Shown here one piece after another: positions 9,801 to 42,005 of a DNA stretch of 64,000 nucleotides. The number at the start of each line of letters is the position of its first letter. The first letter of the stretch is position 1. Made by a program: the position numbers and the translations under genes. Source of the stretch: an uncultured virus (IMG/VR IMGVR_UViG_3300042554_003148) (taxonomy: Duplodnaviria > Heunggongvirae > Uroviricota > Caudoviricetes); the IMG/VR virus record IMGVR_UViG_3300042554_003148. One strand, 5' to 3'. The notes under the pieces are model-generated. The model was given only the letters and a program-made list of their open reading frames with translations. It was not told the DNA's origin and searched no databases.

Positions 9801-11959
9801 CTCCTAGTCTAACTCGAACAATAACTCCGACAACAACCCTATCTCTAACACCAACATCTACTTTAACTCCAACACAAACTATAACAAATACACCAACATC
9901 AACTATTGGCGGTACTCCAACAGTAACTCCTACATTAACATCAACTCCTACGAATACTCCTTCTGTAACTGTTAGTCCGACATCAAGTGCTACGCCAACA
10001 ATCACACCAACTACTACTACAACTCCAACAACAACAATTATTGTAACTCCAACAACAACCCCAACGGTTACTCCTACAGAAACTCCAACCGTTACTCCAA
10101 CAACAACCCCAACAGTTACTCCCACAACAACGATTACTCCAACTGTTACTATAACACAAACACCAACAACAACTCCAACCGTTACTCCAACAGAAACTCC
10201 AACCCTTACTCCTACAGAAACGCCAACTGTTACACCGACGCTCACCTCTACACCAACAGAAACACCAACACCAACAGTAACACCGACACCAACAGCTACA
10301 GAGGGTTTAACACCAACTCCTACCCCATCTGTAACAGAAACCCCAACAGTTACTCCAACAGAAACACCAACAACAACCCCAACAGTTACTCCAACAGAAA
10401 CACCAACAACAACCCCAACAGTTACTCCAACAGAAACACCAACAACAACCCCAACAGTTACTCCAACAGAAACACCAACAACAACCCCAACAGTTACTCC
10501 CACAGAAACCCCAACCGTTACTCCGACAACAACCCCAACTGTTACTCCCACAACAACGATTACTCCAACTGTTACTATAACACAAACATCAACAACAACA
10601 CCAACAACCACGCCAACAATTACACAAACCATTACTCCTTCTTCGACACCAATAGCCGGATGGATTCAAAGAGGTGTAGATATTGATGGCGAGGCAGCTA
10701 ATGATTACAGTGGAAGTAGTGTTGCTATGAATAATGATGGTACCGTAGTAGCAATAGGAGCATATAGCAACGATGGAAATGGAACAGACAGTGGACATAC
10801 TAGAATATATGCTTGGAACGGAACCTCTTGGATTCAAAGAGGAAATGATATTGATGGTGAAGCAGCTTTTGATACAAGTGGATACAGTGTTAGTCTCAAT
10901 AATGATGGAGATATAGTAGCAATCGGAGCAAATGGAAATAATGGTAACGGGACCGATAGCGGAAGCGTAAGAGTATATGTTTGGAATGGTTCAGTATGGA
11001 CTCAACGAGGAAGTGATATTGATGGAGAAGCAACCAATGATGCTAGTGGTATTAGCGTTTCTTTAAATAGCGACGGCACCGTACTAGCAATAGGAGCGTC
11101 TTTAAATGATGGTAATGGAACCGATAGCGGTCATGTACGAGTATATAATTGGAATGGTTCAGCATGGACACAACGAGGAAGCGATATTGATGGAGAAGCG
11201 GCAAGTGATTATAGTGGACAAAGCGTTAGCTTAAATGATAATGGAGATATATTAGCTATTGGAGCATATGGTAATGATAGTAATGGAAATAATAGCGGTC
11301 ATGTACGAGTATATTCTTGGAATGGCTCAGTATGGACTCAAAGAGGAAACGATATTGATGGTGAATCAGCTAACGATGCTAGTGGTTTTAATATTAGTAT
11401 TAATAGTGATGGTACTATACTAGCGATAGGAGCAGGTGGAAATAGCGATAATGGAACAGCTAGCGGCCATACCAGAGTGTATGTTTGGAATGGTACTTCT
11501 TGGGTTCAAAGAGGAAGCGATATTGATGGAGTAGCAGCAAATGATAATAGTGGTCTTAGTGTATCATTAAATAATGATGGTAGCATATTAGCTATTGGAT
11601 CGCCATATAATGACACAAACGGTACCAATAGTGGACATGTACGAGTATATTCTTGGAATGGTAGTTCTTGGACGCAAGTTGGCGATAATATTAATGGAGA
11701 AACATCTTTAAATTATAGTGGAATTAGTGTTCATCTTAATGGAGATGGTACAATATTAACTATCGGAGCCTCTGGTAATAGTGATAATGGAGCTAGTAGT
11801 GGTAGTGTACGAGTATATAGATTAATTGGTATCTCTTTTACGCCCACGCCAACAAAAACCTTAACACCCACACCAACTAAAACACCAACAACAACACCAA
11901 CAGTAACTCCTTCAAAAACAGCATATTATTCAGGCCAACAATATAATTTTATTCCATAA
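6893..11959 (+). CDS. giant modular fibre/adhesin: two permuted FGE/SUMF1 lectin-fold modules, long Thr/Pro linkers, 7-bladed FG-GAP-like beta-propeller
   Basis: [12 protein letters not shown] and NEWYKAAYY/YWxYATQ motifs occur twice. About 7 repeats of [27 protein letters not shown] lie at ~10660-11820. Confidence 0.8.
10341..10500 (+). repeat. 36-bp exact tandem repeat x4.4 ([12 protein letters not shown])
   Basis: CCCCAACAGTTACTCCAACAGAAACACCAACAACAA starts at 10341, 10377, 10413 and 10449, with a partial copy at 10485. Confidence 0.9.
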
Positions 11960-11971
11960 AGATAACATAAT

Positions 11972-14248
11972 ATGAATATTAATAAATCTATTATAGAATG
12001 TTGTCCATTTATACCAACAGCACAGCCTACTCCTAGTCCGACCTTAACACCAAGCGCCACTATTACTCCAACAGTAACACCTACTCCTACGGAAACACCA
12101 CCGGTAACACCCACTAATACAATAACTCCAAGTGCCACAGTCACAATACCTCCGACTCCTACTAATACTCCGACTCCATCATTCACTCCGGCCGAAACAC
12201 CCTCTCCCACAGTAACTCCGACTCCATCTCCAACAATACCATTAGGAATCGCTCCTAATGACTACATTCTAATATTTATTGATGAATCTAATAATTGGCA
12301 ATGTAAACAAGGATCAAATGATCCTGGATGCTCCAATCCAGGAGGTTACGTTGATTGGGCCGGACCTCCATCAACAATAGGATGGGCAGGCTATAATCTA
12401 TATTCCACATGCACATCATGGGACTCGTGTTCATTAAACCCAACAGAATATAAAGAAAGAGATGGAACAGCATACAGAACCACCGATTTTGCTCAAGGGG
12501 GAGTATCTGGCAGTTGGGAAAAAGATATTGCTGCAATTAATACAATATCTTCATCTATCGATTTTAATAAAATTGTTGTATTCCATTCAATATGCAGAAG
12601 ACTTGTAACGTTTTCTGGTGGTGGTATGAATTTAACTATTGAAAGTTGCTTGCCGGAGCCGTTGTTTCCTGTTGCTCCACAAGGATCATATACTCCTAGT
12701 TTATGTCCGATTAGACCGCGTAATTTTATATGGTCCCCTAGAACAATAAATACTGGAACCCGTGGATGCCAAGACGCTTTCAATAATCAATTTCTTACTA
12801 AAACATGGATAGAAACACATTCTATAAATGATAGAAATAGATGGGAAACTTTACCTCCAAATGGAGCTCGTATTTTTATATTTATAGACGACTCAGGTAG
12901 CTTAGGTCAGTATGGAAATAATGTAGAAGAACCTATTGATGAGCTAATAGCTGCTTATCCACAATATAATTTTATTAAGCTTAAATGTGATAATGAAAGA
13001 TTTTTAAGATGGATATATAATGTTACGGTAAAGAATACTGATATTTGTATAAGATCAGGTGGTAATCCTCCAGTTTCTCCTCCACCACCGCCTCCGCCAC
13101 CTCCACCACCGCCGCCTCCGCCACCCGTACAACCACCTATTCCTACTCCACCAGCACAAACTTTTGTAAATAGAATGTGGGCAAATGTTTCTATGACATC
13201 AGACGGATCAATAATAGTAGCATCTGTTCAGAATACTACTTCCACTAATACTGACAGTGTTTTTACGAGTTTAGATTATGGAAATAATTGGACACTAAAT
13301 CGTAGTGGAATAGATGTTAGAGCAATATTAATATACGATAGAGATAAAAGAATATTTGCTGCCCCAGACGATGGTGTAATAGTTAAAAGCGAACAACCGC
13401 CTACTTTTGGTAGTTGGGCAGGTTTATTCGTTATGACAAGATCATACGATAATGTTTCATTAGGATCATCTAGGCCATGGCGAGCAATATCGTGTTCTAC
13501 TGATGGACTAAAATTATGTGCTGGAGATGCTCAGAGTGGATTCTTTGTAAGCAATGACGGAGGTGCCTCTTGGAAAGCTCCAGATGGTAATAATTTTGTA
13601 CCAAGACAATTTAGTGATTTATCTTGTTCTAGTGATGGAAGCATAGTAGCAGCATCAGCATCAAGCTCTACAACATCAGCTGCTGGTGGCGTTTTTGTTA
13701 GCAATAACGGCGGATGGGCCACTGATCGTGGTATAGTTCTATCTCCTTGGAGCGCAAGAGAAAGTTGGAGTCTTAAATTAAGAGATGACGATGTGAGAAT
13801 TATTAGGGGGCCAAATATTGTACGTCGTTTTGAGAGCACAGCAGTATCTAGTAATGGTACTAATATGGTTGCAGTAAGCAATATTGGTTCCGTATTTACA
13901 AGCAATGATACTGGAAACACTTGGACATTCAGATATAATAATTTCCAAAAATGGGAAAAAGTAGCTATATCTCACGACGGCACCAAAATGGTAGCAGTCG
14001 CATCTCAAAGGTTCGCGAGCGGAGCAGTTACTTCAGCAAATTCTGAGTATATTTATACAAGTCATGATGGTGGTATTAATTGGGTTCAAAGAGGTCCACA
14101 AAAACAATGGAGAAGTATTGCTATGTCAGCCGACGGTTCTATTATGGTAGCAGTTGCTGGCCCAGGAACATCAATTAATAATACTTTCGCATACGATGGT
14201 ATTTATAGAAGCACAGATAGCGGAGTTACTTGGACAAGAGTATTCTAG
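11972..14248 (+). CDS. modular fibre/adhesin: PT linker, Cys-rich vWA-like domain, poly-Pro16, Asp-box (BNR) beta-propeller
   Basis: IFIDDSGS (MIDAS-like) and SxDxGxxW Asp-boxes (SLDYGNNW, SNDGGASW, SNDTGNTW, SHDGGINW, STDSGVTW). Confidence 0.75.
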   Translation: MNINKSIIECCPFIPTAQPTPSPTLTPSATITPTVTPTPTETPPVTPTNTITPSATVTIPPTPTNTPTPSFTPAETPSPTVTPTPSPTIPLGIAPNDYILIFIDESNNWQCKQGSNDPGCSNPGGYVDWAGPPSTIGWAGYNLYSTCTSWDSCSLNPTEYKERDGTAYRTTDFAQGGVSGSWEKDIAAINTISSSIDFNKIVVFHSICRRLVTFSGGGMNLTIESCLPEPLFPVAPQGSYTPSLCPIRPRNFIWSPRTINTGTRGCQDAFNNQFLTKTWIETHSINDRNRWETLPPNGARIFIFIDDSGSLGQYGNNVEEPIDELIAAYPQYNFIKLKCDNERFLRWIYNVTVKNTDICIRSGGNPPVSPPPPPPPPPPPPPPPPVQPPIPTPPAQTFVNRMWANVSMTSDGSIIVASVQNTTSTNTDSVFTSLDYGNNWTLNRSGIDVRAILIYDRDKRIFAAPDDGVIVKSEQPPTFGSWAGLFVMTRSYDNVSLGSSRPWRAISCSTDGLKLCAGDAQSGFFVSNDGGASWKAPDGNNFVPRQFSDLSCSSDGSIVAASASSSTTSAAGGVFVSNNGGWATDRGIVLSPWSARESWSLKLRDDDVRIIRGPNIVRRFESTAVSSNGTNMVAVSNIGSVFTSNDTGNTWTFRYNNFQKWEKVAISHDGTKMVAVASQRFASGAVTSANSEYIYTSHDGGINWVQRGPQKQWRSIAMSADGSIMVAVAGPGTSINNTFAYDGIYRSTDSGVTWTRVF

Positions 14249-18937: not shown

Positions 18938-19675
18938 TTGAGAAAGAAAAAAAATGGTAGCACTAGAAAAGAAAAAATTATTGATCTCACAAATTCGCCC
19001 CTTAATCAAGATAATACAAGACTATCATCTAGGAATAGATTAAAACCAAGAACAGAAAATCAAAAAGAATATATACGATCTATTATAGAAAACACTATTA
19101 CTTTTTGTCAAGGCAGTGCTGGTAGTGGTAAAACTCACTGTGCTGTTGGTTTGGCATTGGAGCATTTATTAGAAGATAAAATTAAAAAAATCATTATAAC
19201 AAGACCTGTTGTTGAAGCAGGAGAAAAAATAGGTTATCTTCCAGGTAAATATGAAGAAAAATTATTTCCTTATCTATTACCTATAGAAGATGAGATAAAT
19301 TATTTTATTGGTCCAGCATTGAACGCAACCCTTAAATTAAATAATAAGATAGAAATTGTGCCTTTAGGATTTATGAGAGGAAGAAATTTTCATGATTGTT
19401 TCATAGTAGCAGACGAATGCCAAAATGCTTCCTATGAACAATTAAAAATGCTATTGACAAGAATTGGTCAAAACAGTAAAATGGTATTAACTGGAGATGT
19501 TTCGCAATCAGATCTTGCTAGACATTTACAGGGTGGTTTTTATGAAATGATAAAAAATCTATCAGATGTAGACGGTATAGGTATTTCTACACTAACCGAT
19601 AATGATATTATTCGTAATCCTATAATAGCAAAAATTTTAGCAAAATTAGACAATTATGAACAAGGCAGAAAATAG
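18938..19675 (+). CDS. phoH: PhoH-family ATPase
   Basis: GSAGSGKT, TRPVVEAGE, GYLPG, MRGRNF, DECQN and GDVSQSD. Confidence 0.95.
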   Translation: MRKKKNGSTRKEKIIDLTNSPLNQDNTRLSSRNRLKPRTENQKEYIRSIIENTITFCQGSAGSGKTHCAVGLALEHLLEDKIKKIIITRPVVEAGEKIGYLPGKYEEKLFPYLLPIEDEINYFIGPALNATLKLNNKIEIVPLGFMRGRNFHDCFIVADECQNASYEQLKMLLTRIGQNSKMVLTGDVSQSDLARHLQGGFYEMIKNLSDVDGIGISTLTDNDIIRNPIIAKILAKLDNYEQGRK

Positions 19676-20243
19676 TAAGTGCTTATTATTGAATGCTGAC
19701 TATTCACCTTTAAGAATTATTAGTTGGCAAAAAGCTATTGTATGGTCTATTAAATATGAAAATAGTCCAACATTTAAAATAGAAATACTCGAATATTATA
19801 AAGATAAATTTATTCAGGGTACTAATAATAAACAATTTAAAGTACCATTGGTTGCTAAAACCGTAAGATTTTTTAATATCTACAATAGATCACTAAAGTT
19901 TTCTAGACAAAATCTATTTATTAGAGATAATCATACTTGTCAATATTGTGGTTTAAGATTTAATCATAATGAATTGACTTATGATCATGTTATTCCAAAA
20001 AGCCAATTCTATCCAGATAAAAAAGATGCTACAAATTGGCTAAATATAACAACCGCTTGTGTCAAATGCAATAGAAAAAAATCTAATAAAACTCCGGAAC
20101 AAGCAAACATGAAATTACTAAATATCCCCAAAAAACCATTTTATGAGCCAAGATACTTGCCTTTAGCGAAGGAGTTACATACTATATATGGTAGTAGCTC
20201 AGATCAAAAAGAATGGATAAAATATATAGATGGCTATTTTTAA
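19656..20243 (+). CDS. HNH endonuclease
   Basis: LLLNADYSPL N-terminus; RDNHTCQYCG...TYDHVIPKS...ACVKCNRKK. Confidence 0.9.
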   Translation: MNKAENSKCLLLNADYSPLRIISWQKAIVWSIKYENSPTFKIEILEYYKDKFIQGTNNKQFKVPLVAKTVRFFNIYNRSLKFSRQNLFIRDNHTCQYCGLRFNHNELTYDHVIPKSQFYPDKKDATNWLNITTACVKCNRKKSNKTPEQANMKLLNIPKKPFYEPRYLPLAKELHTIYGSSSDQKEWIKYIDGYF

Positions 20244-24792: not shown

Positions 24793-26259
24793 ATGATACT
24801 TTGTGATCCTGCCGCAGAGAGAGCGGTATTGTCTGGTATATGTAAATATGGTGAAAATGCATATTTAGATATTGCCGATATTGTACAGCCATCGACATTT
24901 ACTGTTGATAGTAATGCTATGATTTTTCAGGTTATAAAAGAAATCTGTGAGAAAGATCATAGTCCATCTATAGATATAGCATCGATATTATCAACTTCCC
25001 AATCATTAAATTTTAGTCATATTCTATCTCAAAAGAATGAGACACAACATTTAAAAGCTATTATTGATTTTCCTGTTAATCTTGAAAACGTGAGAAAGTT
25101 TGCTGCAAAAATACGCAAACTACAAATCGCTAGACTTTTAAGGGAACAACTGGAAAATGCTAAAGAAAAATTACTAGATATTAGTGGCAATGAGCCAATA
25201 TCATCTATTATAGGACTAGCAGAAGATAGTATATTTAACTTTTCAACTCTATTAAATGATACAGATAATAATCCTGTTTGTGTTGCTAATATAGTCGATG
25301 ATTATATCAATAATATTAAAGAAAATCCAATCGATCAAGTCGGTATATCGACAGGGTTTCACGTTTATGATAACGCTATAGGGGGTGGTTTACGAAAAGG
25401 ATCCGTTAGTATCATAGCAGCAAGACCAAAAACCGGTAAAACGCTTCTGGCAGATAATATAGGGTTACACATAGCTAAGAATGTAAAAATTCCTGTATTG
25501 AATATGGATACAGAAATGAGTACTGATGATCATTTAAATAGATTATTGGCTATGATGACAGAAATAGAAATTAATGATATAGAAACTGGGAAAGCTTTTG
25601 AATCACCGGATAAGAATACCAGATTAGTTGGTGCTCAACAAGAATTAAAAAACGCTAAACTTTACTATAAATCAATAGCTGGTAAACCATTTGAAGAGCA
25701 ATTGGCTATAATGAGACGATGGTTAGTAAAGGAGGTTGGATTGCATCCAGACGGCACAGCAAAAGATTGTGTTATAGTTTACGATTATCTAAAACTTATG
25801 GATAGTCAAGGAATTAGTCAAGATCTTAAAGAATACCAAGTTCTAGGCTTTATGATGACTAGTTTGCATAATTTTGCTGTCAGATATAAAGTTCCGATTC
25901 TTGGATTTATTCAATTAAATAGAGATGGAATAACAAAAGAAACAACAGATACTGCTAGCGGATCAGATAGAATTATATGGCTATGTAGTAATTTTACAAT
26001 CTTCAAAAGAAAAAGCGATGAAGAAATTGCAGAAGATGGCCCAAATAATGGTAATAGAAAACTTGTTCCTATTATTAGTAGACATGGTGGTGGTTTAGAT
26101 GATAATGATTATATTAATTGTCATATGAAGGGCTGGTGCGCAAAAATTGAAGAAGGTAAGACTAGATTGGAATTAGTAAATAATAATACTAACACAGATA
26201 AAGGATTTATTGTTAATGACGAGAACAATGATGACGATCAAGAAATCCCGTTCATATAA
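24793..26259 (+). CDS. dnaB: replicative DNA helicase
   Basis: AERAVL N-terminus, GISTGF, AARPKTGKT, DTEM, DYLKL and QLNR. Confidence 0.92.
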   Translation: MILCDPAAERAVLSGICKYGENAYLDIADIVQPSTFTVDSNAMIFQVIKEICEKDHSPSIDIASILSTSQSLNFSHILSQKNETQHLKAIIDFPVNLENVRKFAAKIRKLQIARLLREQLENAKEKLLDISGNEPISSIIGLAEDSIFNFSTLLNDTDNNPVCVANIVDDYINNIKENPIDQVGISTGFHVYDNAIGGGLRKGSVSIIAARPKTGKTLLADNIGLHIAKNVKIPVLNMDTEMSTDDHLNRLLAMMTEIEINDIETGKAFESPDKNTRLVGAQQELKNAKLYYKSIAGKPFEEQLAIMRRWLVKEVGLHPDGTAKDCVIVYDYLKLMDSQGISQDLKEYQVLGFMMTSLHNFAVRYKVPILGFIQLNRDGITKETTDTASGSDRIIWLCSNFTIFKRKSDEEIAEDGPNNGNRKLVPIISRHGGGLDDNDYINCHMKGWCAKIEEGKTRLELVNNNTNTDKGFIVNDENNDDDQEIPFI

Positions 26260-27385
26260 TCAGCAACAACTAAAAGTATTGTCCGATTATTTATGCGAAG
26301 ATATAGATAATCTATTAGATAGTCTAAATATCACAGACTATAAAATATTTGATCGTATGATTGCCATGAGATGTCCTATACACGGAGGAGATAACAACTC
26401 TGCGTGTAACTTATATTATAAAGGGGACTCATACAGGGGAAACTGGAAGTGTCGTACTCATCAATGCGAAGAAACATTCAAAGGATCTATCATTGGTTTT
26501 ATTAGAGGCTGTTTGTCTAAACAAAATGGATGGACAGGACCAGGAGATTCGACAGTATCTTTTAATGATGCTGTTGAATATGCAATAAAGTTTAGTAAGA
26601 AAAATCCTGATAATATTAAAGTCAATAAAAAAGAGGTTGAAAAAAATAATTTTGTTAATGTTATCAATCATATACAGTCTGATATAAGACTAAAAGATGA
26701 ATCACCAAAGGTGTCAAGAGCCACTATTATTAAAAATCTAGATATTCCATCACAATACTTTTTGGATAGAGGATTTTCAAGAGATATATTAATCAAATAT
26801 GATGTTGGAGAATGCACCAGTCGTGAAAAAGAAATGTTCCAAAGGGCAGTTGTTCCTGTTTATGACGATTCTCACTCACATATGGTAGGATGTTCTGGAA
26901 GAAGTCTGTTCGACTCCTGCGAAAAATGTAAGGGCTATCATAGTTTAGACGCATTATGTCCAAAAGATGACTATTTATGGCAATACTCTAAATGGAAGCA
27001 TAATAAGGGATTTAAGACTCAAGAATATCTATATAATTTATGGTATGCGAAAGACTATATACAACAAAGTAAAAGTATAATTCTTGTAGAAAGTCCCGGC
27101 AATGTATGGAGACTTGAAGAGGCAGGAATACATAATAGCGTAGCCCTATTCGGATCTGTGCTACAAGACAAACAAAAACTATTATTGGATATATCCGGGG
27201 CTATGAGTATATATATGTTAATGGATAATGATGAAGCTGGCAAAAAAGCATCAGAAAAAATTTATGATAAATGTTCGAAAACATATAATGTCTATAAAAT
27301 AGATATTGATCATCCTGATGTTGCCGAGATGACCGTCTCAGAAGTAAAAGAAATTATTTCACCACAAATACGAGATAAGTACTAA
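26228..27385 (+). CDS. dnaG: DNA primase (Zn-binding domain plus TOPRIM)
   Basis: CPIH...CRTHQC, YFLDRG, R.VVPVYD, GR, LYNL, ILVES and MDNDEAG. Confidence 0.88.
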   Translation: MMTIKKSRSYNQQQLKVLSDYLCEDIDNLLDSLNITDYKIFDRMIAMRCPIHGGDNNSACNLYYKGDSYRGNWKCRTHQCEETFKGSIIGFIRGCLSKQNGWTGPGDSTVSFNDAVEYAIKFSKKNPDNIKVNKKEVEKNNFVNVINHIQSDIRLKDESPKVSRATIIKNLDIPSQYFLDRGFSRDILIKYDVGECTSREKEMFQRAVVPVYDDSHSHMVGCSGRSLFDSCEKCKGYHSLDALCPKDDYLWQYSKWKHNKGFKTQEYLYNLWYAKDYIQQSKSIILVESPGNVWRLEEAGIHNSVALFGSVLQDKQKLLLDISGAMSIYMLMDNDEAGKKASEKIYDKCSKTYNVYKIDIDHPDVAEMTVSEVKEIISPQIRDKY

Positions 27386-27978
27386 TGAATACCAAAATTA
27401 TAGCATTTTCTGGACGTAAACAGTCTGGCAAAACTATTTGTTCAGAATTTTTAAAAGGATTATTATTATCTAATGGATATTCTGATGTTGAAATATATAA
27501 CTTTGCAGACCCATTGAAAGAAGACATATGCATGAACATGTTTGGATTATCATATGCTCAGTGTTATGGCGAAGATCATAATAAGAATGAACTAGTTGAT
27601 GCCTATTGGGAAGATAAGCAACTAACAGCACGAGATTTAATGCAATTAATAGGCACGGACTTATTTAGAAAATTAAATAATAATATTTGGGTAAATGCTC
27701 TTATCAATAAAATTAAAAAGAGTAAACTTCAAGTTGTTATAGTTTCTGATTGTAGATTTCCTAATGAAATAGAAGCTATAAAAAATAATGGAGGAATAGT
27801 ATTTCGACTAAATAGAAATCCACACAAATCAGAACATATTAGCGAATCAATATTGGATGCTTGCAGATATGATTGGAATAATTTTAATGCTATCATTAAT
27901 AATGAACATATGACAGTTAGAGAGCAATATGATAAACTTAAAAAACTTATGTTACATTTTAATGTACTACCACAATAA
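27385..27978 (+). CDS. deoxynucleoside monophosphate kinase
   Basis: GRKQSGKT, FADPLK, RDLMQLIGTD, DCRFPNE and HISE. Confidence 0.9.
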   Translation: MNTKIIAFSGRKQSGKTICSEFLKGLLLSNGYSDVEIYNFADPLKEDICMNMFGLSYAQCYGEDHNKNELVDAYWEDKQLTARDLMQLIGTDLFRKLNNNIWVNALINKIKKSKLQVVIVSDCRFPNEIEAIKNNGGIVFRLNRNPHKSEHISESILDACRYDWNNFNAIINNEHMTVREQYDKLKKLMLHFNVLPQ

Positions 27979-27987
27979 TAGGATATC

Positions 27988-29976
27988 ATGATTATAACTT
28001 ATTTCCGTAGTTCGTCTTATAATGCCCATTCTATGTGCGAACAACAATATTTTTTTGAATATGTACTAGGATGGAGGGGCCCAAGTGGACAAAAGGCGGA
28101 TAAAGGAACAATAGTCCATAAAGTTTTAGAAATTCTTGCCATGATCAAACAAGGTCAGCAAGATAAATTATCTCATATAAATGATGACGAATTCTTAGGT
28201 CTTATAGATATAAATGACTATAGTCTTAATACCATAATAGAAAAAGTATACAAGCATTATAGTACCGCTAATAGTCATCATACTTGGACTCTAAAAGATT
28301 ATAAGGACTGCTATAATTGGGTTTACAAGGCTATAGAATTTAATGGCGGTATGTTTGATCCTAGAAATCGCACCATTCTTAGACCAGAACAACACTTTGA
28401 TTTGGTAATAGAAAAACCATGGGCTAAATACGAGTATAATATTAATAATCAAAAACTAGATGGATATTTGGGCTTAAAAGGCACTATAGATCTTATAACT
28501 TTGGCTAATGATAATACTATTGAGGTCATAGATTGGAAAGGATTGCCATTAGATACAAAATTACCTACTCTTGACGGATGGACAACAATTGCAGATATAA
28601 ATGTGGGATGTAATGTCTTTGATCAATACGGTAATATATGTCGCGTTGTTGGAAAATCAAAAGTCAAAACAAAAAAATGTTTCAGAGTAACTTTTGATGA
28701 CAAAACATCGGTAATTTGTGACGATGAGCATTTATGGAAATTATCTAATGGTGAAACGGTATCTATACAGGATCTAGTTATTGGCGATACTATTAATGTG
28801 ACAAAACCATTAAAATGTAATGAACAATCCCTACCAATAGATCCTTATCTATTAGGAGTCTGGTTAGGAGACGGAAGAAATAGAGGCTGCGAGATTAGTG
28901 GCAATGATACTGAAATTTTTGAAGAAATACAAGCAAGAGGTTATGAGCTAGGAAAAATTCAAAATGATAAAAGATCAAAAAATAAGACAGTATCGATCCT
29001 AAATGTGACAAAAATACTAAAATCTTTAAATCTATTGAATAATAAACATATACCAAAAATTTATTTGAGAGCATCTTTTCAACAAAGGCTAGACTTACTA
29101 AGGGGTTTGATGGATACAGACGGAAATGTAAATCCAATTAGAAAACAAACTGTGTTTACTTCTTGTAATAAAAAACTATCCGACGATGTTAAAGACCTAC
29201 TTTTAACCCTTGGGCAAAGACCGAATCAAGCGTGTATTAAAAGAGATACAAATTACAAAAAAAACGTAATCATATATCCTATTTCGTTTCGTCCAATTGA
29301 CATTAATCCTTTTCTATTGAGCAGGAAAAAAGAACTTGTGGATGTAAATTGGGGATCTGGAAGATCTAGGGTTAGACGAGTTTCTAAAATAGAAGAATCG
29401 ATTATACAAAAAACTCAATGCATTTCCGTAGACAGTCCAGACAATACTTATCTGTGTACAGAAAATTATATTCCAACACATAATACTGGACGAAGACTAG
29501 ATTGGGCAACAGGACAAGAAAAAACACAAGAAAAATTAGAAAAAGATCCTCAACTCAAAATCTATCATTATGCTATTAAAAAACTGTATCCTCATATAGA
29601 GAATGTTATTTTTTCCATATATTTTATTAATGATGGTGGTCCTTTTTCTATGGTTTTTCATGATAGCGATCTTGCCGATACTGAAAATATGTTACGTCAA
29701 AAATTTGAAATCATTAAACAAACTAAACGACCACGATTGAATAAAAGTTGGATGTGTAATAAATTATGTCATTTTGGTAAGACTACATTTGCTAATACTA
29801 ATATTGAGCCATTGAAAGAGTATAGGGATGGACAAATATGTCAAAAAGATTCGATCATGACAAAATGTGAACAAGTGAAGCACGACCTTGAACTTTACGG
29901 GATCGATGCTACAATGAGTATGTACAAGCACCCGAATCATTCTTTTGGATCCTACAAAGCACCCGGAACCGTATGA
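27988..29976 (+). CDS. Cas4-like/AddB PD-(D/E)XK exonuclease interrupted by an intein
   Basis: SSYN...C N-terminus, GTIVHKVLE, GTIDL...IDWK|TG, QLKIY and a C-terminal CxxxC cluster; 347 aa after splicing. Confidence 0.88.
   Translation: MIITYFRSSSYNAHSMCEQQYFFEYVLGWRGPSGQKADKGTIVHKVLEILAMIKQGQQDKLSHINDDEFLGLIDINDYSLNTIIEKVYKHYSTANSHHTWTLKDYKDCYNWVYKAIEFNGGMFDPRNRTILRPEQHFDLVIEKPWAKYEYNINNQKLDGYLGLKGTIDLITLANDNTIEVIDWKGLPLDTKLPTLDGWTTIADINVGCNVFDQYGNICRVVGKSKVKTKKCFRVTFDDKTSVICDDEHLWKLSNGETVSIQDLVIGDTINVTKPLKCNEQSLPIDPYLLGVWLGDGRNRGCEISGNDTEIFEEIQARGYELGKIQNDKRSKNKTVSILNVTKILKSLNLLNNKHIPKIYLRASFQQRLDLLRGLMDTDGNVNPIRKQTVFTSCNKKLSDDVKDLLLTLGQRPNQACIKRDTNYKKNVIIYPISFRPIDINPFLLSRKKELVDVNWGSGRSRVRRVSKIEESIIQKTQCISVDSPDNTYLCTENYIPTHNTGRRLDWATGQEKTQEKLEKDPQLKIYHYAIKKLYPHIENVIFSIYFINDGGPFSMVFHDSDLADTENMLRQKFEIIKQTKRPRLNKSWMCNKLCHFGKTTFANTNIEPLKEYRDGQICQKDSIMTKCEQVKHDLELYGIDATMSMYKHPNHSFGSYKAPGTV
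28540..29484 (+). mobile_element. class 3 intein (Gly1, WCT triplet) with LAGLIDADG homing endonuclease, 315 aa
   Basis: Block A GLPLDTKLPTLDGW, block B CDDEHLW, LAGLIDADG motifs LGVWLGDG and LRGLMDTDG, block F TQCISVDS, block G IPTHN followed by Thr+1. Confidence 0.9.
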
Positions 29977-31841
29977 CTTATTCAGTACTACATTGTCATT
30001 CTCATTTTTCATTATTGGATGGCTTAAATAGACCAGAGCAAATTGCCACCAGATGTGCCAAACTGGGCATAAAATCATGCGCCTTAACAGATCATGGTAA
30101 TATTGCTGGATCGGTACAGTTTTATCAGAAAATGAGATCTAAGAATATTAAACCTATTCTTGGATGCGAATTATATATTTGTGAAGATGATCCATCAATA
30201 CAAACAAAAGAGAATGCTTCCTTGTCGCATTTTCTCGTACTTGCTAAAAATTTAAAAGGCTGGAAAACACTCATCAAAATAGTCTCGGAATCAAATAGGC
30301 CAGATTATTTTTACCATAAGCCAAGACTAAGTATCAAAAAATTATCAGAATTACTAGATGGTAACATAATAGGTGTTTGTGGTCATTTGGGATCGACCCT
30401 ATCGGATATTATCTTAAAAGATCAGGATAATAGTATTTCTAATGGTCTTTCTTTTATAGACAATATGAAAACTATATTCGGTGATAATAATTTTTATTTG
30501 GAAACACAATTATTCGATAAAGACTATCTAAAAGAACAAGTCTATTTAACAGAAACGATTAGGCGACTATCCGAATTAAGTAAAATTAAGGCAGTATCTA
30601 CTCCCGATGCTCATTATTGCGAACAAGACGACGCTATAGACCAAAGGATTCTTCTTTGCAATAATTTAAAAACAACACTATCTGATATTAATACTAAATT
30701 AATTAATAATCAAAGTATTCCTATGGAGTGCTTCTTTAAAAGTGATAAATATTATATCCTATCTCCAGAAGAGATGACGAACCTACATAGTCCACAGGAA
30801 ATAGAAAATACAATTTTTGTCGATAGCTTAATAGAAGAGTTCGACATCTTATCTGCTCCAAAATTGCCTAATTTTGATTGTCCAGAAAACTATGATCCTG
30901 ATGAATTTTTAAGGGAATTGTGTAGAGTTGGATGGAAAAATAAAATCATTCCAAATATTCCAAAGGATGATCATCAAGTTTATGTAGATAGAATAAAATA
31001 TGAGTTAGATATATTACAAGGTGCTAGTTTATCTAGTTATTTTTTAATTGTGCAAGATATAGTCAACCATGTTAGACATAATAACTGGCTACCTGGACCG
31101 GGCAGAGGAAGTGGGGCTGGGTGTCTGGTTTCTTACCTTGTTGGTATCACAGATATTGATCCCATGAAATATGATTTATTATTCGAAAGATTTTATAATG
31201 CTGGTAGAAATACTAAAGATAGAATCTCTATGCCAGATATTGATATAGATATTCCAATCGATAAACGCGAACAAGTATTAGAATACATAAAAAATAAATA
31301 TGGACACAGTAAAGTATCTCAAATGATTACTTTTAATACTATGAAAGGTAGAGGGGCACTAAAAGACGTATTGCGAGTATATGGTAATATTAGTTTCGAA
31401 GAGATGAATACTATTACTAAGTTTATTCCTGACGAAGCTAAGATAGCGGACGAGCTTCAAGAAATGAAAGAAGATACTGGAGAAGCATCTATTATCAGAT
31501 GGGCTCTAGAAAATAATACGGATAAACTAAAAGAATGGTGCTATATATCTGAAGAGGACGGGACTTTATCTGGGCCTCTATCTAAAAGATTTGAACAGGC
31601 AATAAGATTGGAGGGAACAAAATCTAATCAAAGCAAACATGCTGCTGGTGTAATAATAGGTACTCAAGACCTTGCGTCTTTATGCCCGATGGTCTATGAT
31701 AACAGAAATGATCAGCTTATCGCTGGCATGGAGATGAACGATCTAGAGAGTTTGGGTCTAATAAAATTTGACATATTGGGTATCGCATATTTGGATAAAA
31801 TTATGTCAGTATCAGAATATTTAAAACACGGAGAACTATAA
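29973..31841 (+). CDS. dnaE: DNA polymerase III alpha, N-terminal part (PHP, palm, thumb)
   Basis: HCHSHFSLLDG, LTDHG, GRGSGAG, LLFERF, PDIDID, SKHAAG and KFDILG, followed shortly by a stop. Confidence 0.93.
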   Translation: MTYSVLHCHSHFSLLDGLNRPEQIATRCAKLGIKSCALTDHGNIAGSVQFYQKMRSKNIKPILGCELYICEDDPSIQTKENASLSHFLVLAKNLKGWKTLIKIVSESNRPDYFYHKPRLSIKKLSELLDGNIIGVCGHLGSTLSDIILKDQDNSISNGLSFIDNMKTIFGDNNFYLETQLFDKDYLKEQVYLTETIRRLSELSKIKAVSTPDAHYCEQDDAIDQRILLCNNLKTTLSDINTKLINNQSIPMECFFKSDKYYILSPEEMTNLHSPQEIENTIFVDSLIEEFDILSAPKLPNFDCPENYDPDEFLRELCRVGWKNKIIPNIPKDDHQVYVDRIKYELDILQGASLSSYFLIVQDIVNHVRHNNWLPGPGRGSGAGCLVSYLVGITDIDPMKYDLLFERFYNAGRNTKDRISMPDIDIDIPIDKREQVLEYIKNKYGHSKVSQMITFNTMKGRGALKDVLRVYGNISFEEMNTITKFIPDEAKIADELQEMKEDTGEASIIRWALENNTDKLKEWCYISEEDGTLSGPLSKRFEQAIRLEGTKSNQSKHAAGVIIGTQDLASLCPMVYDNRNDQLIAGMEMNDLESLGLIKFDILGIAYLDKIMSVSEYLKHGEL

Positions 31842-32024
31842 ATGCTAACAAAAACTTTAGATCAAGTTGCTGCTGGCGAAATATTCAAGGTTAATAATAT
31901 TAACTATGTCAAAATCGCCGAGGTTCGTGTCAGTTGTTGCAGAACCGTGAACTGTCACGTTCTAGAAGATAGTAATCAAAGGACTTTTTTCCCAGGAAAC
32001 ACAGTTGTGGAGACTAATGGCTAA
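31842..32024 (+). CDS. small beta-rich protein between the dnaE halves
   Basis: 60 aa; GGAG RBS; abuts the dnaE-N stop and overlaps the exonuclease start. Confidence 0.65.
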   Translation: MLTKTLDQVAAGEIFKVNNINYVKIAEVRVSCCRTVNCHVLEDSNQRTFFPGNTVVETNG

Positions 32025-32718
32025 TTTACAAAAAATTTGTGTATTCGATTTAGAAACGGACGGGGCTAATCCCGATATTTGTAGCCCCGTTCAAATCGCT
32101 GCTGTTATTATCGATCCTTATAAATTAGAAATAATCAAAGATTCAGAATTTAATATCAATCTAAAGCCCCAAGCAATACAAGATAATCCAGAATATATAT
32201 ATGATGATTCAGATGTTCTGGATTTTCATGCCAAAGTTAGAGGATGTGATAAAACAAAAATCTTAGAAGATTGGAGATCTTTCCAGAAACAAGACAGTGG
32301 ATGGAAAATGTTTGTATCATATTTGGAAAAATATCATATAAGATCTGATAAAAAATCTTGCTTTACAGCTCCTATTGCTGCTGGCTATAATATTAATAGA
32401 TTCGATCTAAGAATTATAGATAGATTAAGCATAAAATATAATAATGTCAATAAGGAGGGACGAACATCTCTATTTTATCCACGAGATGTTATTGACTTAA
32501 TGAACGTTATTTTTTATTGGTTTGAAGGTAATAATGAGCTTAAAAACTATACACTTGATAATGTTAGAGAATATTTAGGATTAGGAAATAGTGGCTCTCA
32601 TGATGCTCTAAATGATGTTAGGGCAACAGCTGATATTTTGATAAGGTTTATGAAATTACATAGAAATTTATCGAATAAGGTAAAATTCAGAAACGCCTTT
32701 GCTCTTGCAAAAAATTGA
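32017..32718 (+). CDS. dnaQ: DEDDh 3'-5' exonuclease (epsilon/DnaQ-like)
   Basis: ExoI FDLETDG, ExoII GYNINRFD, ExoIII HDALND; GGAG RBS before ATG 32017. Confidence 0.88.
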   Translation: MANLQKICVFDLETDGANPDICSPVQIAAVIIDPYKLEIIKDSEFNINLKPQAIQDNPEYIYDDSDVLDFHAKVRGCDKTKILEDWRSFQKQDSGWKMFVSYLEKYHIRSDKKSCFTAPIAAGYNINRFDLRIIDRLSIKYNNVNKEGRTSLFYPRDVIDLMNVIFYWFEGNNELKNYTLDNVREYLGLGNSGSHDALNDVRATADILIRFMKLHRNLSNKVKFRNAFALAKN

Positions 32719-32719
32719 A

Positions 32720-34333
32720 ATGACTCAATATTTTACTTTTGATTGTGGATGTAAGTTCAAGGTTTTGGAATATACCTCAGAAGGAATTCCAAAAATAGAA
32801 TTTACAGGTAAGTTGAGCGATCTTAATCTTGATTGTTCAAAAACATGGTCTATGATCGGAGATGGTAATACCAAGGGTGTATTTCAACTAGAATCAAGGT
32901 TAGGTTCTAGTATGGCTAAAAAATTAAAACCAGAGAATATAGAACAACTATCTGCCCTAATTAGTATTATGAGGCCAGGATCTTTGGAAGCTTATAGAGA
33001 TGGTAAAAGTATTAGTCATCATTATATAGACAAAAAGAATGGTCAAGAAAGCTTAGACTATTTTCACCCATCCCTTGAGCCATCATTAAAATCAACCTAT
33101 GGAGAGATGATATATCAAGAACAGGCCATGCAAATCGCGCAAGCGGTGGCTGGTTTTGATCTACAAGAGGCAGATATGCTGCGTAAAGCAATTGGCAAAA
33201 AGAAGCCAGAAGAAATGGCTAAGATCAGGGTAAAGTTTAAGGATGGTGCTAAAAAACTGAATATAGTCAACGACGAAGAAATAGACGAAATATTTAGTTG
33301 GATTGAAAAAAGTCAAAGATATTCTTTTAACAAAAGCCACGCTGTGTCATATGCTATGAATGCATATTCTTCGGCTTATGCAAAAGCTCATTTTGCTAAA
33401 GTATTTTTTGCATCATACCTTAAATTTGCAAAAGATAAAATGGATCCTCAAAAAGAAATAAAAGAACTAATACGTAATGCAACAGAAATGGATGTGATTG
33501 TATGTGTTCCTGATGTAAGAAAGCTTAATAAGCATTTTACTATTAGCGATGATAAAATATATTTTGGTCTTACCGATATTAAGGGTGTCGGTTATTCTGT
33601 TTATGATAAATTATTAACTATTATTAAAGACTTAGATATAAATAATATATCTTGGAATACATGTTTAGTTAAAGTTTTAACAAAAATTAATTCCACAGCA
33701 GCTAAAGCATTAATATCATGTGGCGCTTTAGATCATCATAATATCACCCGTACAAAAATGTTATTTGAATACGATATAATATCTGAATTAACTTCTAGAG
33801 AATTAGATCTATTAGACTTGGAAAAGTCGTCTATTGCACAATCTTTACATGGTTTATTGACACAAAATAAAATTAATATTAAGCGAAAAAGTAGCATACA
33901 AAATCTTATCAATTTATATAACAATCCGCCATATTCATTAGATGATAAAATAGAATGGCTATCTGATACAGAAAATGCTTTATTAGGGGCCTCTATAACT
34001 TGTTTTAAGATAGATTCTTATGATATTAGTATGACAAATTGTGATTGTAAAGCTTTCAAGACTACCAACGCATCAAAAAATATTATTTTAGCAGGAGAAA
34101 TTAGTTCCATCAACTTTGTCAAAACAAAAAACGGCAAAAATCCTGGGGCTGAAATGGCCTTTGTCACAATAGAGGATCAATTTGCATCACTAGACTCAGT
34201 AATATTATTTCCTGAGCAATTATCAAAATATCGTAACTATCTATTCGATGGTAATGTACTAATATTCTTAGGTAATAAAAGTTCTAAAAAAGATTCTTTT
34301 ATAGTGGAGAAATGTTTTATACCAAGATCTTGA
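32720..34333 (+). CDS. dnaE: DNA polymerase III alpha, C-terminal part (fingers, HhH, OB fold)
   Basis: GVFQLES, SIMRPG, TYGEMIYQEQ, ADMLRKAIGKK, YSFNKSHA, GLTDIKGVG and MAFVTIED. Confidence 0.93.
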   Translation: MTQYFTFDCGCKFKVLEYTSEGIPKIEFTGKLSDLNLDCSKTWSMIGDGNTKGVFQLESRLGSSMAKKLKPENIEQLSALISIMRPGSLEAYRDGKSISHHYIDKKNGQESLDYFHPSLEPSLKSTYGEMIYQEQAMQIAQAVAGFDLQEADMLRKAIGKKKPEEMAKIRVKFKDGAKKLNIVNDEEIDEIFSWIEKSQRYSFNKSHAVSYAMNAYSSAYAKAHFAKVFFASYLKFAKDKMDPQKEIKELIRNATEMDVIVCVPDVRKLNKHFTISDDKIYFGLTDIKGVGYSVYDKLLTIIKDLDINNISWNTCLVKVLTKINSTAAKALISCGALDHHNITRTKMLFEYDIISELTSRELDLLDLEKSSIAQSLHGLLTQNKINIKRKSSIQNLINLYNNPPYSLDDKIEWLSDTENALLGASITCFKIDSYDISMTNCDCKAFKTTNASKNIILAGEISSINFVKTKNGKNPGAEMAFVTIEDQFASLDSVILFPEQLSKYRNYLFDGNVLIFLGNKSSKKDSFIVEKCFIPRS

Positions 34334-34357
34334 CAATCGACGCCGTCTTGGTATAAT
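34330..34357 (+). promoter_or_regulatory. consensus sigma70 promoter with extended -10, driving ssb
   Basis: TTGACA 34330-34335, 16-nt spacer, TGg-TATAAT with the hexamer at 34352-34357. Confidence 0.8.
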
Positions 34358-34396
34358 ATGTATAGTTGTGGCGTTTTTAACTTTAGGAGTTTGATT

Positions 34397-34765
34397 ATGA
34401 ATATCACTTTGTTGAAGGGTAATTTAGCACGAGATCCGGAACTACGCGTTGTTAATCCTAATGGAAAGCAAACAAGCGTTGTCAACTTTACTATTGCTGT
34501 TAACAGAGATTATGTTAAGGCTAATGGAGAAAAAGACAGGATCACATCTTTTATTAACTGCGAGGCATGGGATAGCGGCGCCGAAACTATTGCTGAGTCC
34601 TTGAAGAAGGGCGACTTGGTGATGGTTGAAGGCTCCTTAAGAAATGACACATGGGAAAAAGATGGTGTTAAGCATAGTAGTCTAAAGGTTAGAGTTAATA
34701 ACTTTTCTAAGATTACCAAGTTGAGCAGAATTAAGTCGGAAGAGTCCGAAACTGTTGCTTTCTGA
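34397..34765 (+). CDS. ssb: single-stranded DNA-binding protein
   Basis: AGGAG RBS; GNLARDPELR, NFTIAVNR, KKGDLVMVEGSLR and acidic ..ETVAF tail. Confidence 0.95.
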   Translation: MNITLLKGNLARDPELRVVNPNGKQTSVVNFTIAVNRDYVKANGEKDRITSFINCEAWDSGAETIAESLKKGDLVMVEGSLRNDTWEKDGVKHSSLKVRVNNFSKITKLSRIKSEESETVAF

Positions 34766-34782
34766 AACCAAATAGGAAATAT

Positions 34783-34819
34783 ATAGAATATTGGGGGTGA
34801 AATATCCCCCTTATTCTAT
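34783..34819 (+). terminator. stem-loop after ssb (terminator/attenuator candidate)
   Basis: ATAGAATA-TT-GGGGG / loop TGAAATAT / CCCCC-T-TATTCTAT; ends 5 nt before ATG 34825. Confidence 0.6.
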
Positions 34820-40773: not shown

Positions 40774-41218
40774 TATAGGATTTATGCTTATAAATATAGA
40801 AAATGATCAACACCATGATTCTATGCTACAAAATATTAGAAAATTGATAGATGCTAATCCATATAAAAATATTGTTATATTTAATAGTATTTGTAATAAA
40901 ATTACTACTTATAATATCCCTATCTTGCATCTGAGTCACGCTAAATTTTTTGAGGGCGACTTATGGCTATTTGATTTAACTAGTGTTATTATTAGTAAGA
41001 ACTTCACCAATCTTAATAAAAAAATACTATATTGTAATGACATGCCGTGGTTAAAAAATAGAACTAATATATATAACGAATGGCTAAAGATTTACGATTC
41101 TGATCTAGATTTTGTAACTACCAATCAATATTTGTATGATATATACAGTATATGTTGGAAAAAACCATTAGATATTATGGAGAATTTCGATTATGAAAAA
41201 ATACAACACATCGTATGA
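40760..41218 (+). CDS. hypothetical protein (possible GT-B N-terminal-domain remnant)
   Basis: KKILYCNDMPW...DFVTTNQY pattern; coupled to its neighbours. Confidence 0.5.
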   Translation: MIKNNIGFMLINIENDQHHDSMLQNIRKLIDANPYKNIVIFNSICNKITTYNIPILHLSHAKFFEGDLWLFDLTSVIISKNFTNLNKKILYCNDMPWLKNRTNIYNEWLKIYDSDLDFVTTNQYLYDIYSICWKKPLDIMENFDYEKIQHIV

Positions 41219-42005
41219 CCAACTATCTGATCAAGATAAAAAAGATCTAATATTATCTTTATATTCATCAGAAGGTAAGAGCTTTGCTGATATAGCTACT
41301 ATGTACGATACTTATGCTAATAGAATAAGACGAGACGCTAAAAAATATAATATAAAAATCAGAGATAAAAGCGAAGCTCAAAAAAATGCATTAAAAACTG
41401 GCAAACACTCTCATCCAACAAAAGGCAAAGAAAGATCAGAGGACACAAAACAAAAAATAGGGATGGGAGTATTAAACGCATGGGAAAATCTCGAAGACAA
41501 CGAAATACAAAAAAGAAAGCTTAAAGCTAAACAAAATTGGGAAAATTTAGACGATAACACAAAAGAAAACATACTTAAATCTGCTAATATGGCAGTAAGA
41601 ACCACCAGCAAGGTAGGATCAAAATTAGAAAAATATCTACATAAAAGACTATTAAGTGATGGTTATAAAGTAGAGTTTCATAAAGAGCAAACACTGGTAA
41701 ACACAAGGTTGCAAATTGACCTGTTCGTTCCTAGTATAAATCTAGCTATAGAAGTGGATGGTCCATCTCACTTCACTCCTGTGTGGGGCCAAGAATCTTT
41801 AAAAAGAAATAAAAACTACGATAATAAAAAAGAAGGATTAATCATTGGTAAAGGATGGAACTTATTGAGAATTATACAAACTAAAGATTATTCTGATGCT
41901 CGTGCGTTTTTGATCTATGATCAAATACTACAGATTATAAAAACAAATCATTCTGATCTCATTTCTGGACAACAGAAATTTATTATAAAGGATACCAATG
42001 GCTAA
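41193..42005 (+). CDS. free-standing homing endonuclease: HTH, NUMOD3 and Vsr/DUF559-type nuclease
   Basis: KSFADIATMY..YANRIRR, HPTKGKERSEDTKQKI, DLFVPSINLAIEVDGPSH and GWNLLRI. Confidence 0.8.
   Translation: MKKYNTSYDQLSDQDKKDLILSLYSSEGKSFADIATMYDTYANRIRRDAKKYNIKIRDKSEAQKNALKTGKHSHPTKGKERSEDTKQKIGMGVLNAWENLEDNEIQKRKLKAKQNWENLDDNTKENILKSANMAVRTTSKVGSKLEKYLHKRLLSDGYKVEFHKEQTLVNTRLQIDLFVPSINLAIEVDGPSHFTPVWGQESLKRNKNYDNKKEGLIIGKGWNLLRIIQTKDYSDARAFLIYDQILQIIKTNHSDLISGQQKFIIKDTNG

Follow-up and report, generated by a model that had tools for sequence, protein, structure and literature searches.

A phage DNA polymerase III alpha encoded as two intein-free halves with a DnaQ-like exonuclease gene between them

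In a 64 000-nucleotide (nt) stretch of DNA from an uncultured freshwater Caudoviricetes virus (IMG/VR record IMGVR_UViG_3300042554_003148; hereafter the window), the alpha subunit of DNA polymerase III (Pol III) is encoded by two genes, dnaE-N and dnaE-C, which are separated by a small open reading frame (ORF) and a complete gene for a DnaQ-like DEDDh 3'–5' exonuclease. The four + strand ORFs are packed end to end at positions 29973–34333, and the two halves together are one whole Pol III alpha, without loss at the cut. We consider it likely that this is a phage replicative polymerase in pieces, with halves that re-associate non-covalently and a nested exonuclease that acts as the proofreader. 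To our knowledge, work on Pol III alpha has dealt with a single-chain enzyme, save for the intein-spliced cyanobacterial form, and a full-text search of a literature library found no account of a full-length, intein-free DnaE cut in two with an exonuclease gene in the gap. Phage polymerases made of separate pieces are already known; here the arrangement appears in the C family, with the proofreader gene nested in the cut.

The first gene, dnaE-N (29973–31841, +), encodes the PHP, palm and thumb half of alpha (622 amino acids (aa), stop codon TAA). Its stop abuts the ATG of the small ORF (31842–32024, +; 60 aa; hereafter the mini-protein), which lies in the same frame as dnaE-N; the TAAATG junction (31839–31844, +) can be read directly from the sequence, with a GGAG 11 nt upstream. 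The exonuclease gene (32017–32718, +; 233 aa counted from its ATG) overlaps the end of the mini-protein ORF by 8 nt (ATGGCTAA, 32017–32024, +), an overlap kept in 65 of 79 close loci, and a single base separates its stop from the start of dnaE-C (TGAaATG, 32716–32722, +). The last gene, dnaE-C (32720–34333, +; 537 aa counted from ATG), encodes the fingers, duplex-binding helix-hairpin-helix (HhH) and OB half. With GGAG ahead of both the mini-protein and exonuclease starts, and with stop/start overlaps within the set, the tight spacing of the four genes is compatible with coupled translation. The longest ORF for DnaE-C begins at TTG 32699, the start adopted in a sequence-only reading of this DNA that preceded our analysis; the proteins of relatives begin at the Met of 'M..Y.TFDCGC', which favours ATG 32720 instead. 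In other respects the layout described in that reading was confirmed, both from the ORFs and from 80 of 80 related loci.

The four-gene layout is neither a misassembly nor a recent break. Twenty-four listed DNA sequencing runs, from freshwater and lake metagenomes of 2016–2024, contain at least 99% of the sampled words of the stretch; the matching runs may include the source sample. In three of the four runs checked, a single independent contig runs through the full 4361 bases without any difference or joint, so the misassembly that the sequence-only reading had held out as a danger was not seen. In the fourth run the stretch is covered by two overlapping contigs.

DnaE-N opens with an uninterrupted PHP domain (29988–30509, +; aa 6–179; Pfam PF02811, 3.6e-38). 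All nine PHP metal-ligand positions are filled (H7, H9, D16, H41, E66, H86, H138, D212 and H214), the last two lying beyond the Pfam match. The catalytic region, with its Pol-beta-like palm and the thumb, follows (30906–31781, +; aa 312–603), matching the DNA_pol3_alpha family PF07733 over positions 2–260 of 260 and including the PDIDID and KFDILG motifs. To assess residue conservation, alignments of 45 distinct sequences were used for each DnaE half and of 40 for the exonuclease. PHP ligands, catalytic residues and exonuclease residues proved invariant or nearly so, the catalytic aspartates D422, D424 and D600 being invariant across all 45 sequences. The protein terminates 22 aa past D600, the third catalytic aspartate, close to the 20 or so residues estimated previously, and the ligands and motifs picked out at that stage are present and conserved.

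DnaE-C begins with an ordered three-strand element of about 40 aa (32720–32839, +) that carries three invariant cysteines, C9 and C11 in a Cys-Gly-Cys motif and C39. The fingers domain (32810–33259, +; PF17657, DNA_pol3_finger) is matched from profile position 21 and includes GVFQLES; it is followed by an unbroken YSFNKSH (33320–33340, +; aa 201–207), the helix-hairpin-helix domain (33497–33757, +; PF14579, HHH_6) and a C-terminal OB fold (33998–34330, +), which occupies aa 427–537, the last 110 residues, of the AlphaFold2 model (Z-score 11–12). The model as a whole (predicted local distance difference test score (pLDDT) 78.2) superposes on residues 573–926 of E. coli alpha and 607–1099 of M. 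tuberculosis DnaE1, with a Z-score of 15.8 in each case.

Alignment to full-length references, a check suggested in the sequence-only reading, showed the two halves to be complementary. DnaE-N spans positions 42–615 of PHROG 405 and DnaE-C 610–1054; on the NCBIfam model NF004226 (1146 positions) the spans are 5–575 and 583–1051. DnaE-N aligned with residues 7–626 of Taq alpha, and DnaE-C with residues 648–947 of Taq alpha and 588–1055 of E. coli alpha. Because the alignments are complementary, the cut can be placed in the short linker that follows the final strand of the palm (KFDILG, with D600), which we take, from the domain limits of E. coli alpha, to be the palm/fingers transition. The E. 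coli alignment ends at residue 1055 of 1160, with nothing aligned beyond and the tau-binding end not seen. No clear clamp-binding motif was seen in DnaE-C, and no beta-clamp family was matched in the nearest genome record (G001; 101 kb, 70% complete by CheckV). That record has one PF07733 match and no match to PolA or PolB. The enzyme departs from a DnaE-type alpha in not being a single polypeptide, since a stop follows aa 622 and two genes precede the fingers half. Neither half reaches the NCBIfam equivalog cut-offs singly, and PolC models match weakly (1e-31, vs 1e-141 for DnaE models). With gene callers and family thresholds set for full-length proteins, each half scores too low, and split replicases of this kind are easily misread as fragments.

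The arrangement is strongly conserved among close relatives. A search of IMG/VR with DnaE-N yielded 242 relatives, the best 80 of which (66–100% identity) were analysed. The order N, mini-protein, exonuclease, C is kept, well beyond what chance would give, with dnaE-N in 80/80 loci, the mini-protein in 80/80, the exonuclease in 79/80 and dnaE-C in 73/80; the genes missed were all at contig ends. Spacing between dnaE-N and the mini-protein ranges from −17 to +3 nt, and more in some loci, and the frame of dnaE-C relative to dnaE-N is offset by 1, 2 and 0 in 38, 27 and 8 loci, respectively. Given such varying spacing and frames, there is no conserved read-through or frameshift fusion. Median pairwise ratios of nonsynonymous to synonymous substitution rates (dN/dS) were 0.10 for dnaE-N (22 pairs), 0.21 for the mini-protein (86 pairs), 0.09 for the exonuclease (45 pairs) and 0.14 for dnaE-C (29 pairs), values that are rough because dS is high and near saturation (1.2–1.8). 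By this measure all four genes are under purifying selection.

The cut extends well beyond the close set. A HMMER scan of 1.84 billion representative proteins gave 27 794 hits; among the best 150 (39–65% identity), 133 end within 15 aa of the end of the window's DnaE-N, six continue into the fingers half and one (P0150) has a long unexplained tail. Two profile-based locus searches gave a more distant set of 156 loci (39–51% identity), some of them from contigs of the close set. Here dnaE-N is cut by a contig end or an insert in 16 loci, unsplit in five and ends after the palm in 135. Among these 135 split loci, 101 have dnaE-N, exonuclease and dnaE-C in order (N and C lie at most 1 kb apart in 67 and further apart in 34), 27 have less than 2.5 kb of downstream DNA (21 of them with the exonuclease right after N), two have the exonuclease but end before dnaE-C is reached, and five have neither within approximately 4.46 kb. 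The survey of related phages that the sequence-only reading had proposed thus recovered the same split and gene order in 80/80 close and 101 of 156 distant loci.

The exonuclease is the most constant occupant of the gap, present in 101 of the 108 split loci with enough downstream DNA. It matches RNase_T (PF00929, 2.6e-10), PHROG 192 (3e-24) and, by profile, the exonuclease domain of T. maritima PolC (PDB 2P1J, 1.6e-6), and its Exo I (D11/E13), Exo II (D130) and Exo III (H195/D200) residues are invariant in 40 sequences. Its only matches in GenBank phages are to six Bacteroides phages, at 27–28% identity. A conserved basic/aromatic tail extends beyond the fold (aa 215–233, with K221, F224, K225 and F228) and may serve as a docking peptide towards the polymerase or a clamp.

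In the scheme that we favour, DnaE-N and DnaE-C would be made separately from one tightly coupled operon, the cut falling in a surface linker right after the palm, and would re-associate non-covalently into an active polymerase. The DEDDh exonuclease would join the same complex as an epsilon-like proofreading subunit, while the intact PHP site may add a second 3'–5' activity. Non-covalent assembly of the halves is most likely by analogy with two phage precedents: gp43A and gp43B of Aeromonas phage 25 co-purify and polymerise (PMC2988022), and PhiKZ DNAP-N and DNAP-C form a stable 1:1 complex (PMC13648687). An epsilon-like role is likewise the most likely one for the exonuclease, judging from its gene position and the alpha–epsilon paradigm, and a second proofreader is possible because the PHP ligand set is intact. 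The suggestion of two proofreaders in the sequence-only reading holds to this extent, with the PHP ligands and DEDDh residues both intact and a second 3'–5' activity possible. Its non-covalent replicase of three to four subunits survives as regards the conserved, intein-free split with an exonuclease and a small gene inside, and loses the metal clasp discussed below; the assembly itself is predicted by comparison. A complex prediction run without controls on DnaE-N 300–622, DnaE-C 1–340, the exonuclease and the mini-protein scored 0.00 against a mark of 0.32 and speaks neither way.

Several points weigh against this scheme. The physical association and activity of the three or four products are argued from comparison, and no RNA run containing the stretch was found among the listed sequencing runs. 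Unsplit dnaE genes occur at similar identity in the six representatives mentioned above (P0005, P0007, P0010, P0027, P0029 and P0086) and in loci L163–L166 and L170, so the split is not obligatory for this type of polymerase. In the five distant loci L103, L161, L162, L179 and L182, dnaE-N ends at the usual stop with neither exonuclease nor dnaE-C within about 4.46 kb, and the halves may be far apart in this sublineage. The mini-protein is not universal, its slot holding unrelated small ORFs or none in other sublineages, which makes its membership in the complex tentative. Since the nearest genome record is only 70% complete, another polymerase may also be encoded.

The unsplit relatives bear on the history of the split. 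In L163–L166 and L170 the exonuclease gene lies directly upstream of an unsplit 1139-aa dnaE (for example, L163:3786–7902), possibly a before-or-after state of the nested layout. FastTree trees built for the N part, with bacterial-type dnaE as the root, show an unsplit Bacillus phage branching first, followed by Rossellomorea phage phiT1 (support 1.0) and then the aquatic clade. One unsplit group (P0086, P0010, P0029 and L163–L170; support 1.0) falls near the base of the aquatic clade, where the backbone is weak (0.5), and an unsplit pair (P0005 and P0007) falls within the split forms as sister to L189 (0.88), inside a clade with support of 0.97. Viral-contig locus searches with P0058 and P0007 found no relatives, and a search of metagenome contigs with P0007 gave one distant locus at 31% identity. 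These trees would fit either an early split followed by one or more re-fusions or splits that arose independently several times. Among the Bacillus phages, 056SW001B has a continuous 1034-aa gene and Jayan a dnaE cut at another place. Phage phiT1, which is cultured (PV767480, L081 2477–5759), is the sister of the aquatic clade in the N-half tree; its dnaE is cut at the same point into gp20 (573 aa) and gp18 (469 aa), with a small ORF, gp19 (49 aa), in the gap. It differs in that the gap holds no exonuclease, gp19 is unrelated to the window's mini-protein and gp18 lacks the Cys-bearing element of DnaE-C. The phiT1 record labels both pieces 'DNA polymerase III subunit alpha', without comment.

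The mini-protein is conserved within its lineage: F15, C32, C33 and V56 do not vary across 59 sequences, and Y22, K24 and N37 hardly do. C38, the cysteine of the 'NC' pair noted in the sequence-only reading, is variable among relatives. AlphaFold2 predicts an SH3-like six-stranded beta-barrel (pLDDT 92.7) with the Ser-Cys-Cys (SCC) motif in the hairpin turn between strands 20–29 and 35–40. Among solved structures, the closest fold is that of EF-P/eIF5A domain I (Foldseek E 0.03; template modelling (TM) score 0.57–0.60), and similarities to ribosomal L2, FeoA, KOW and Tudor domains (Z-score 4–5) are ordinary for small barrels. Matches in BFVD are to uncharacterized small phage proteins (best E 3.6e-4, TM 0.83). 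No family was matched in Pfam, PHROGs or NCBIfam, a protein-atlas search returned unnamed viral clusters only, and an alignment search restricted to longer proteins found no fused longer form at E ≤ 0.001, which is weak evidence against the existence of one.

Distant sublineages have other small ORFs in this slot, or nothing (as in L137, L155, L175, L193 and L205). One group comprises proteins of 72–83 aa with the pattern '..SIC.IND..YQVH..' and a C-terminal helix; the others include a '..MCKSFDK..' group and two more groups. Comparison of the window's family (A) with B, C and D by hhalign gave probabilities of 0.2–0.3%, on which account a '[VL]S.C' motif that had seemed to be shared by families A and B was dropped. 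Our best guess is that the mini-protein is a lineage-specific accessory, a small adaptor or stabilizer for the exonuclease or for the joint of the two halves. The E. coli Pol III core (alpha–epsilon–theta) likewise combines a polymerase with a separate DEDDh proofreader and a very small third protein, although its alpha is in one piece and the phage alpha in two. Theta is a helical small subunit; the mini-protein is all-beta, and neither a sequence nor a fold match between the two was seen.

Among other explanations for the split, covalent rejoining of the halves into a mature single chain, through an atypical and very short split intein or splicing at the RNA level, is in our judgement very improbable. 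Intein-like elements do occur in this context: 18 of the best 150 DnaE-N representatives have insertions of intein size at other places in the gene, a LAGLIDADG insert interrupts the nuclease gene next door, and split-intein DnaE loci are known from aquatic metagenomes (PMC2677866). At the cut itself, however, no Hint/intein family was matched in either half at E ≤ 0.01 (Pfam), and no Rfam family, introns included, at E ≤ 1 within 29500–34800. There is little room for an intein, with 22 aa after the last palm motif in DnaE-N and about 35 aa ahead of the conserved fingers start in DnaE-C, the latter being themselves ordered and conserved; the tails of DnaE-N differ among relatives and share no nucleophile at the junction, and the intervening DNA encodes two proteins under purifying selection. 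The lack of intein termini recorded in the sequence-only reading is thereby borne out. Still less credible, and indeed extremely improbable, is an inactivating break that would have left a pseudogene or decaying polymerase while another enzyme replicates the genome. The existence of unsplit relatives and the incompleteness of the nearest genome record (70%) are in keeping with such a break. Yet both halves are intact and cut at the same point in 133/150 clusters and more than 200 loci, dN/dS is approximately 0.1 for both, the catalytic residues are all invariant, and the 101-kb record yielded neither PolA nor PolB. The recent inactivating split that the sequence-only reading had considered is contradicted by the same observations.

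We regard as unlikely, though less so, the idea that the junction is the fossil of a mobile-DNA insertion, in which an element or cassette fractured dnaE and the exonuclease and small ORFs are passengers, with polymerase halves that still assemble. The dnaE-N/dnaE-C junction does look like an insertion hot spot. In L015 an HNH-type endonuclease-like ORF (L015:7840–8563) lies between dnaE-N and the mini-protein ORF, more than 1 kb separates N from C in 34/101 distant loci, the small-ORF slot holds at least four families with hhalign probabilities below 1%, or nothing, and the gap of phiT1, whose cut falls in the same place, contains nothing but an unrelated 49-aa ORF. Fracture of phage genes linked to homing endonucleases is moreover documented (PMC2988022 and PMC2677866). 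On the other hand, the gap enzyme is a DnaQ-type proofreader with intact DEDDh residues and not a homing endonuclease; it is present in 101/108 informative split loci, has the lowest dN/dS of the four genes and lies directly upstream of dnaE in the unsplit lineage. Its constancy, intact residues, low dN/dS and upstream position together argue for a functional link with the polymerase.

The sequence-only reading had further speculated that cysteines of the mini-protein and of the DnaE-C start form an inter-subunit metal clasp. In the AlphaFold2 model the DnaE-C element consists of strands 4–6, 12–18 and 24–26 (pLDDT 83–88) and has no counterpart in solved alphas, to which structural alignments start at model residues 14–24. 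Joint metal binding by the Cys-Cys of the mini-protein and the Cys-x-Cys...Cys hairpin of DnaE-C would suit the invariance of C32 and C33, at a hairpin tip, in 59 mini-proteins and of C9, C11 and C39 in 45 DnaE-C sequences, as well as the nature of the unsplit relatives, in which a linker of about 30 aa runs from KFDILG to the fingers without a Cys hairpin. When co-occurrence was counted over 107 distinct combinations, the hairpin was present in 54 of 55 variants with the SCC protein, the exception being the lineage L183/L184. The hairpin also occurs, however, in 27 variants lacking the SCC protein, some from lineages without any small ORF, and 25 variants have neither. Since the co-occurrence is largely that of one clade, it is explicable by relatedness, and the independence of the hairpin from the SCC protein means that an obligate clasp is not supported; we think a shared metal site quite unlikely. 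It seems better to regard the hairpin as belonging to the N-terminus that the split has created, where it may be a small element for metal binding or docking. A more elaborate proposal, which we rate as rather unlikely, is that the whole arrangement is an adaptive design: a modular replicase with the DEDDh subunit built co-translationally between palm and fingers, the hairpin and, within this clade, the SCC protein serving as joints (possibly with a shared metal), and two proofreaders, the PHP exonuclease being still active. Were that so, the replicase would be a non-covalent analogue of PolC.

Compared with single-chain DnaE enzymes (E. coli, PDB 2HNH and 5FKU; Taq, 2HPI and 3E0D; M. tuberculosis, 7PU7), the phage enzyme has the same domain order of PHP, palm, thumb, fingers, HhH and OB and keeps the catalytic aspartate and PHP ligand positions; it differs in being made of two polypeptides, with an extra Cys-bearing element of about 20 aa at the new N-terminus. 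PolC of Firmicutes is likewise a C-family enzyme with a DEDDh exonuclease within the linear order of the polymerase. In PolC the exonuclease forms part of the single chain, as a domain lodged inside the PHP domain; here it has a gene of its own, located between those parts that encode palm and fingers, and nothing interrupts the PHP domain. Cyanobacteria also have two dnaE genes, but these are at separate loci with intein halves flanking the cut; the phage genes have no inteins and form one operon around an exonuclease. The cyanobacterial cut is at the FNKSH site, about 230 aa downstream of the phage cut in alpha order. That site is continuous within DnaE-C, so the distinction between the two cuts drawn in the sequence-only reading is upheld. 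Two NCBIfam models that by their length are probably the cyanobacterial halves meet at about the FNKSH residue, and PMC2677866 is in line with a cyanobacterial cut there.

Among the nearest published loci are the 'fractured genes' of aquatic metagenomes described by Dassa et al. in 2009 (PMC2677866). They include three DnaE loci with split inteins and a free-standing homing endonuclease and are likewise phage-like, with dnaE in two adjacent ORFs and a gene between. Those studied here differ in having no intein and, in the gap, a DnaQ-type exonuclease in place of a homing endonuclease. Intein-free split polymerases of Aeromonas phages 25 and 44RR and of PhiKZ are active, non-covalent replicases of two polypeptides; they belong to family B and not to family C, and, because the exonuclease is a domain of those enzymes, they have no nested proofreader gene. 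In group 2.2 jumbo phages, Iyer et al. in 2021 described a minimal Pol III alpha module as two stand-alone proteins, with predicted reconstitution (PMC7824862); that version is without PHP and other domains, has distant genes and accompanies a family B polymerase, in contrast to the full-length, adjacent genes found here and to the 101-kb record, which showed no further polymerase. For OM43 phages, PolA genes that are split and accompanied by a small ORF have been reported (PMC10580990), and in two surveys of bacterial C-family polymerases (PMC3919608 and PMC12926913) the only cases mentioned are intein splits or fragmented genes.

A very large group of abundant aquatic phages encodes Pol III alpha as two chains, cut right after the palm, with the proofreader gene in the gap. 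If the pieces assemble, they would offer a natural system for studying palm–fingers communication in a C-family polymerase, epsilon-like recruitment without the E. coli contacts, and the coexistence of PHP and DEDDh proofreading.

The genes that flank the set are conserved in close loci: a Toprim primase, a deoxynucleoside monophosphate kinase and a PD-(D/E)XK nuclease upstream (26210–29976, +) and a single-stranded DNA-binding protein downstream (34358–34765, +). The nuclease gene (27988–29976, +) has an intein-size insert at aa ~190–499 with a LAGLIDADG_3 match at aa 368–411; the insert ends in ..THN followed by Thr and is missing from most relatives, which match only aa 1–189 and 500–662 by tblastn. 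Inserts in the 18 DnaE-N homologues are approximately 120–430 aa long and lie at query aa ~380 (16 sequences) or ~65 (three), P0071 having both; the carriers are P0008, P0012–14, P0020, P0037, P0040, P0043, P0052, P0054, P0062, P0066, P0071, P0105, P0127, P0132, P0138 and P0141. These inserts are probably inteins. All carriers keep the usual split stop, and two inserts, in P0062 and P0105, show a weak resemblance to the LAGLIDADG portion of the insert in the window's nuclease gene. Elsewhere in the window, a free-standing HNH endonuclease gene adjoining phoH (19656–20243, +) and an ORF with a weak NUMOD3 match (41193–42005, +) are further signs of homing-type elements in this genome.

The GenBank phage collection holds no record with more than 35% identity to either DnaE half, and two of its top 'phage' hits (H2 and H24) were set aside as ordinary bacterial-type full-length dnaE. 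Two GenBank loci, L082 (OQ572403, 'Pseudomonas phage Y1', unverified) and L083 (MT836213, 'Bacteriophage sp.'), have full-length bacterial-type dnaE genes of 1185 and 1157 aa, respectively, in a high-GC or bacterial-looking context, and may be host DNA. The remainder of the window includes very large ORFs at 43410–63998 (−), of 2726, 1089, 1104, 659 and at least 1215 aa, which match no Pfam family and of which one has a PHROG, of unknown function; they presumably encode structural or host-interaction proteins. The region 6893–14248 (+) encodes a 1688-aa protein that combines FG-GAP repeats with an FGE-sulfatase-like domain and, after it, a 758-aa protein that has BNR/sortilin-like repeats.

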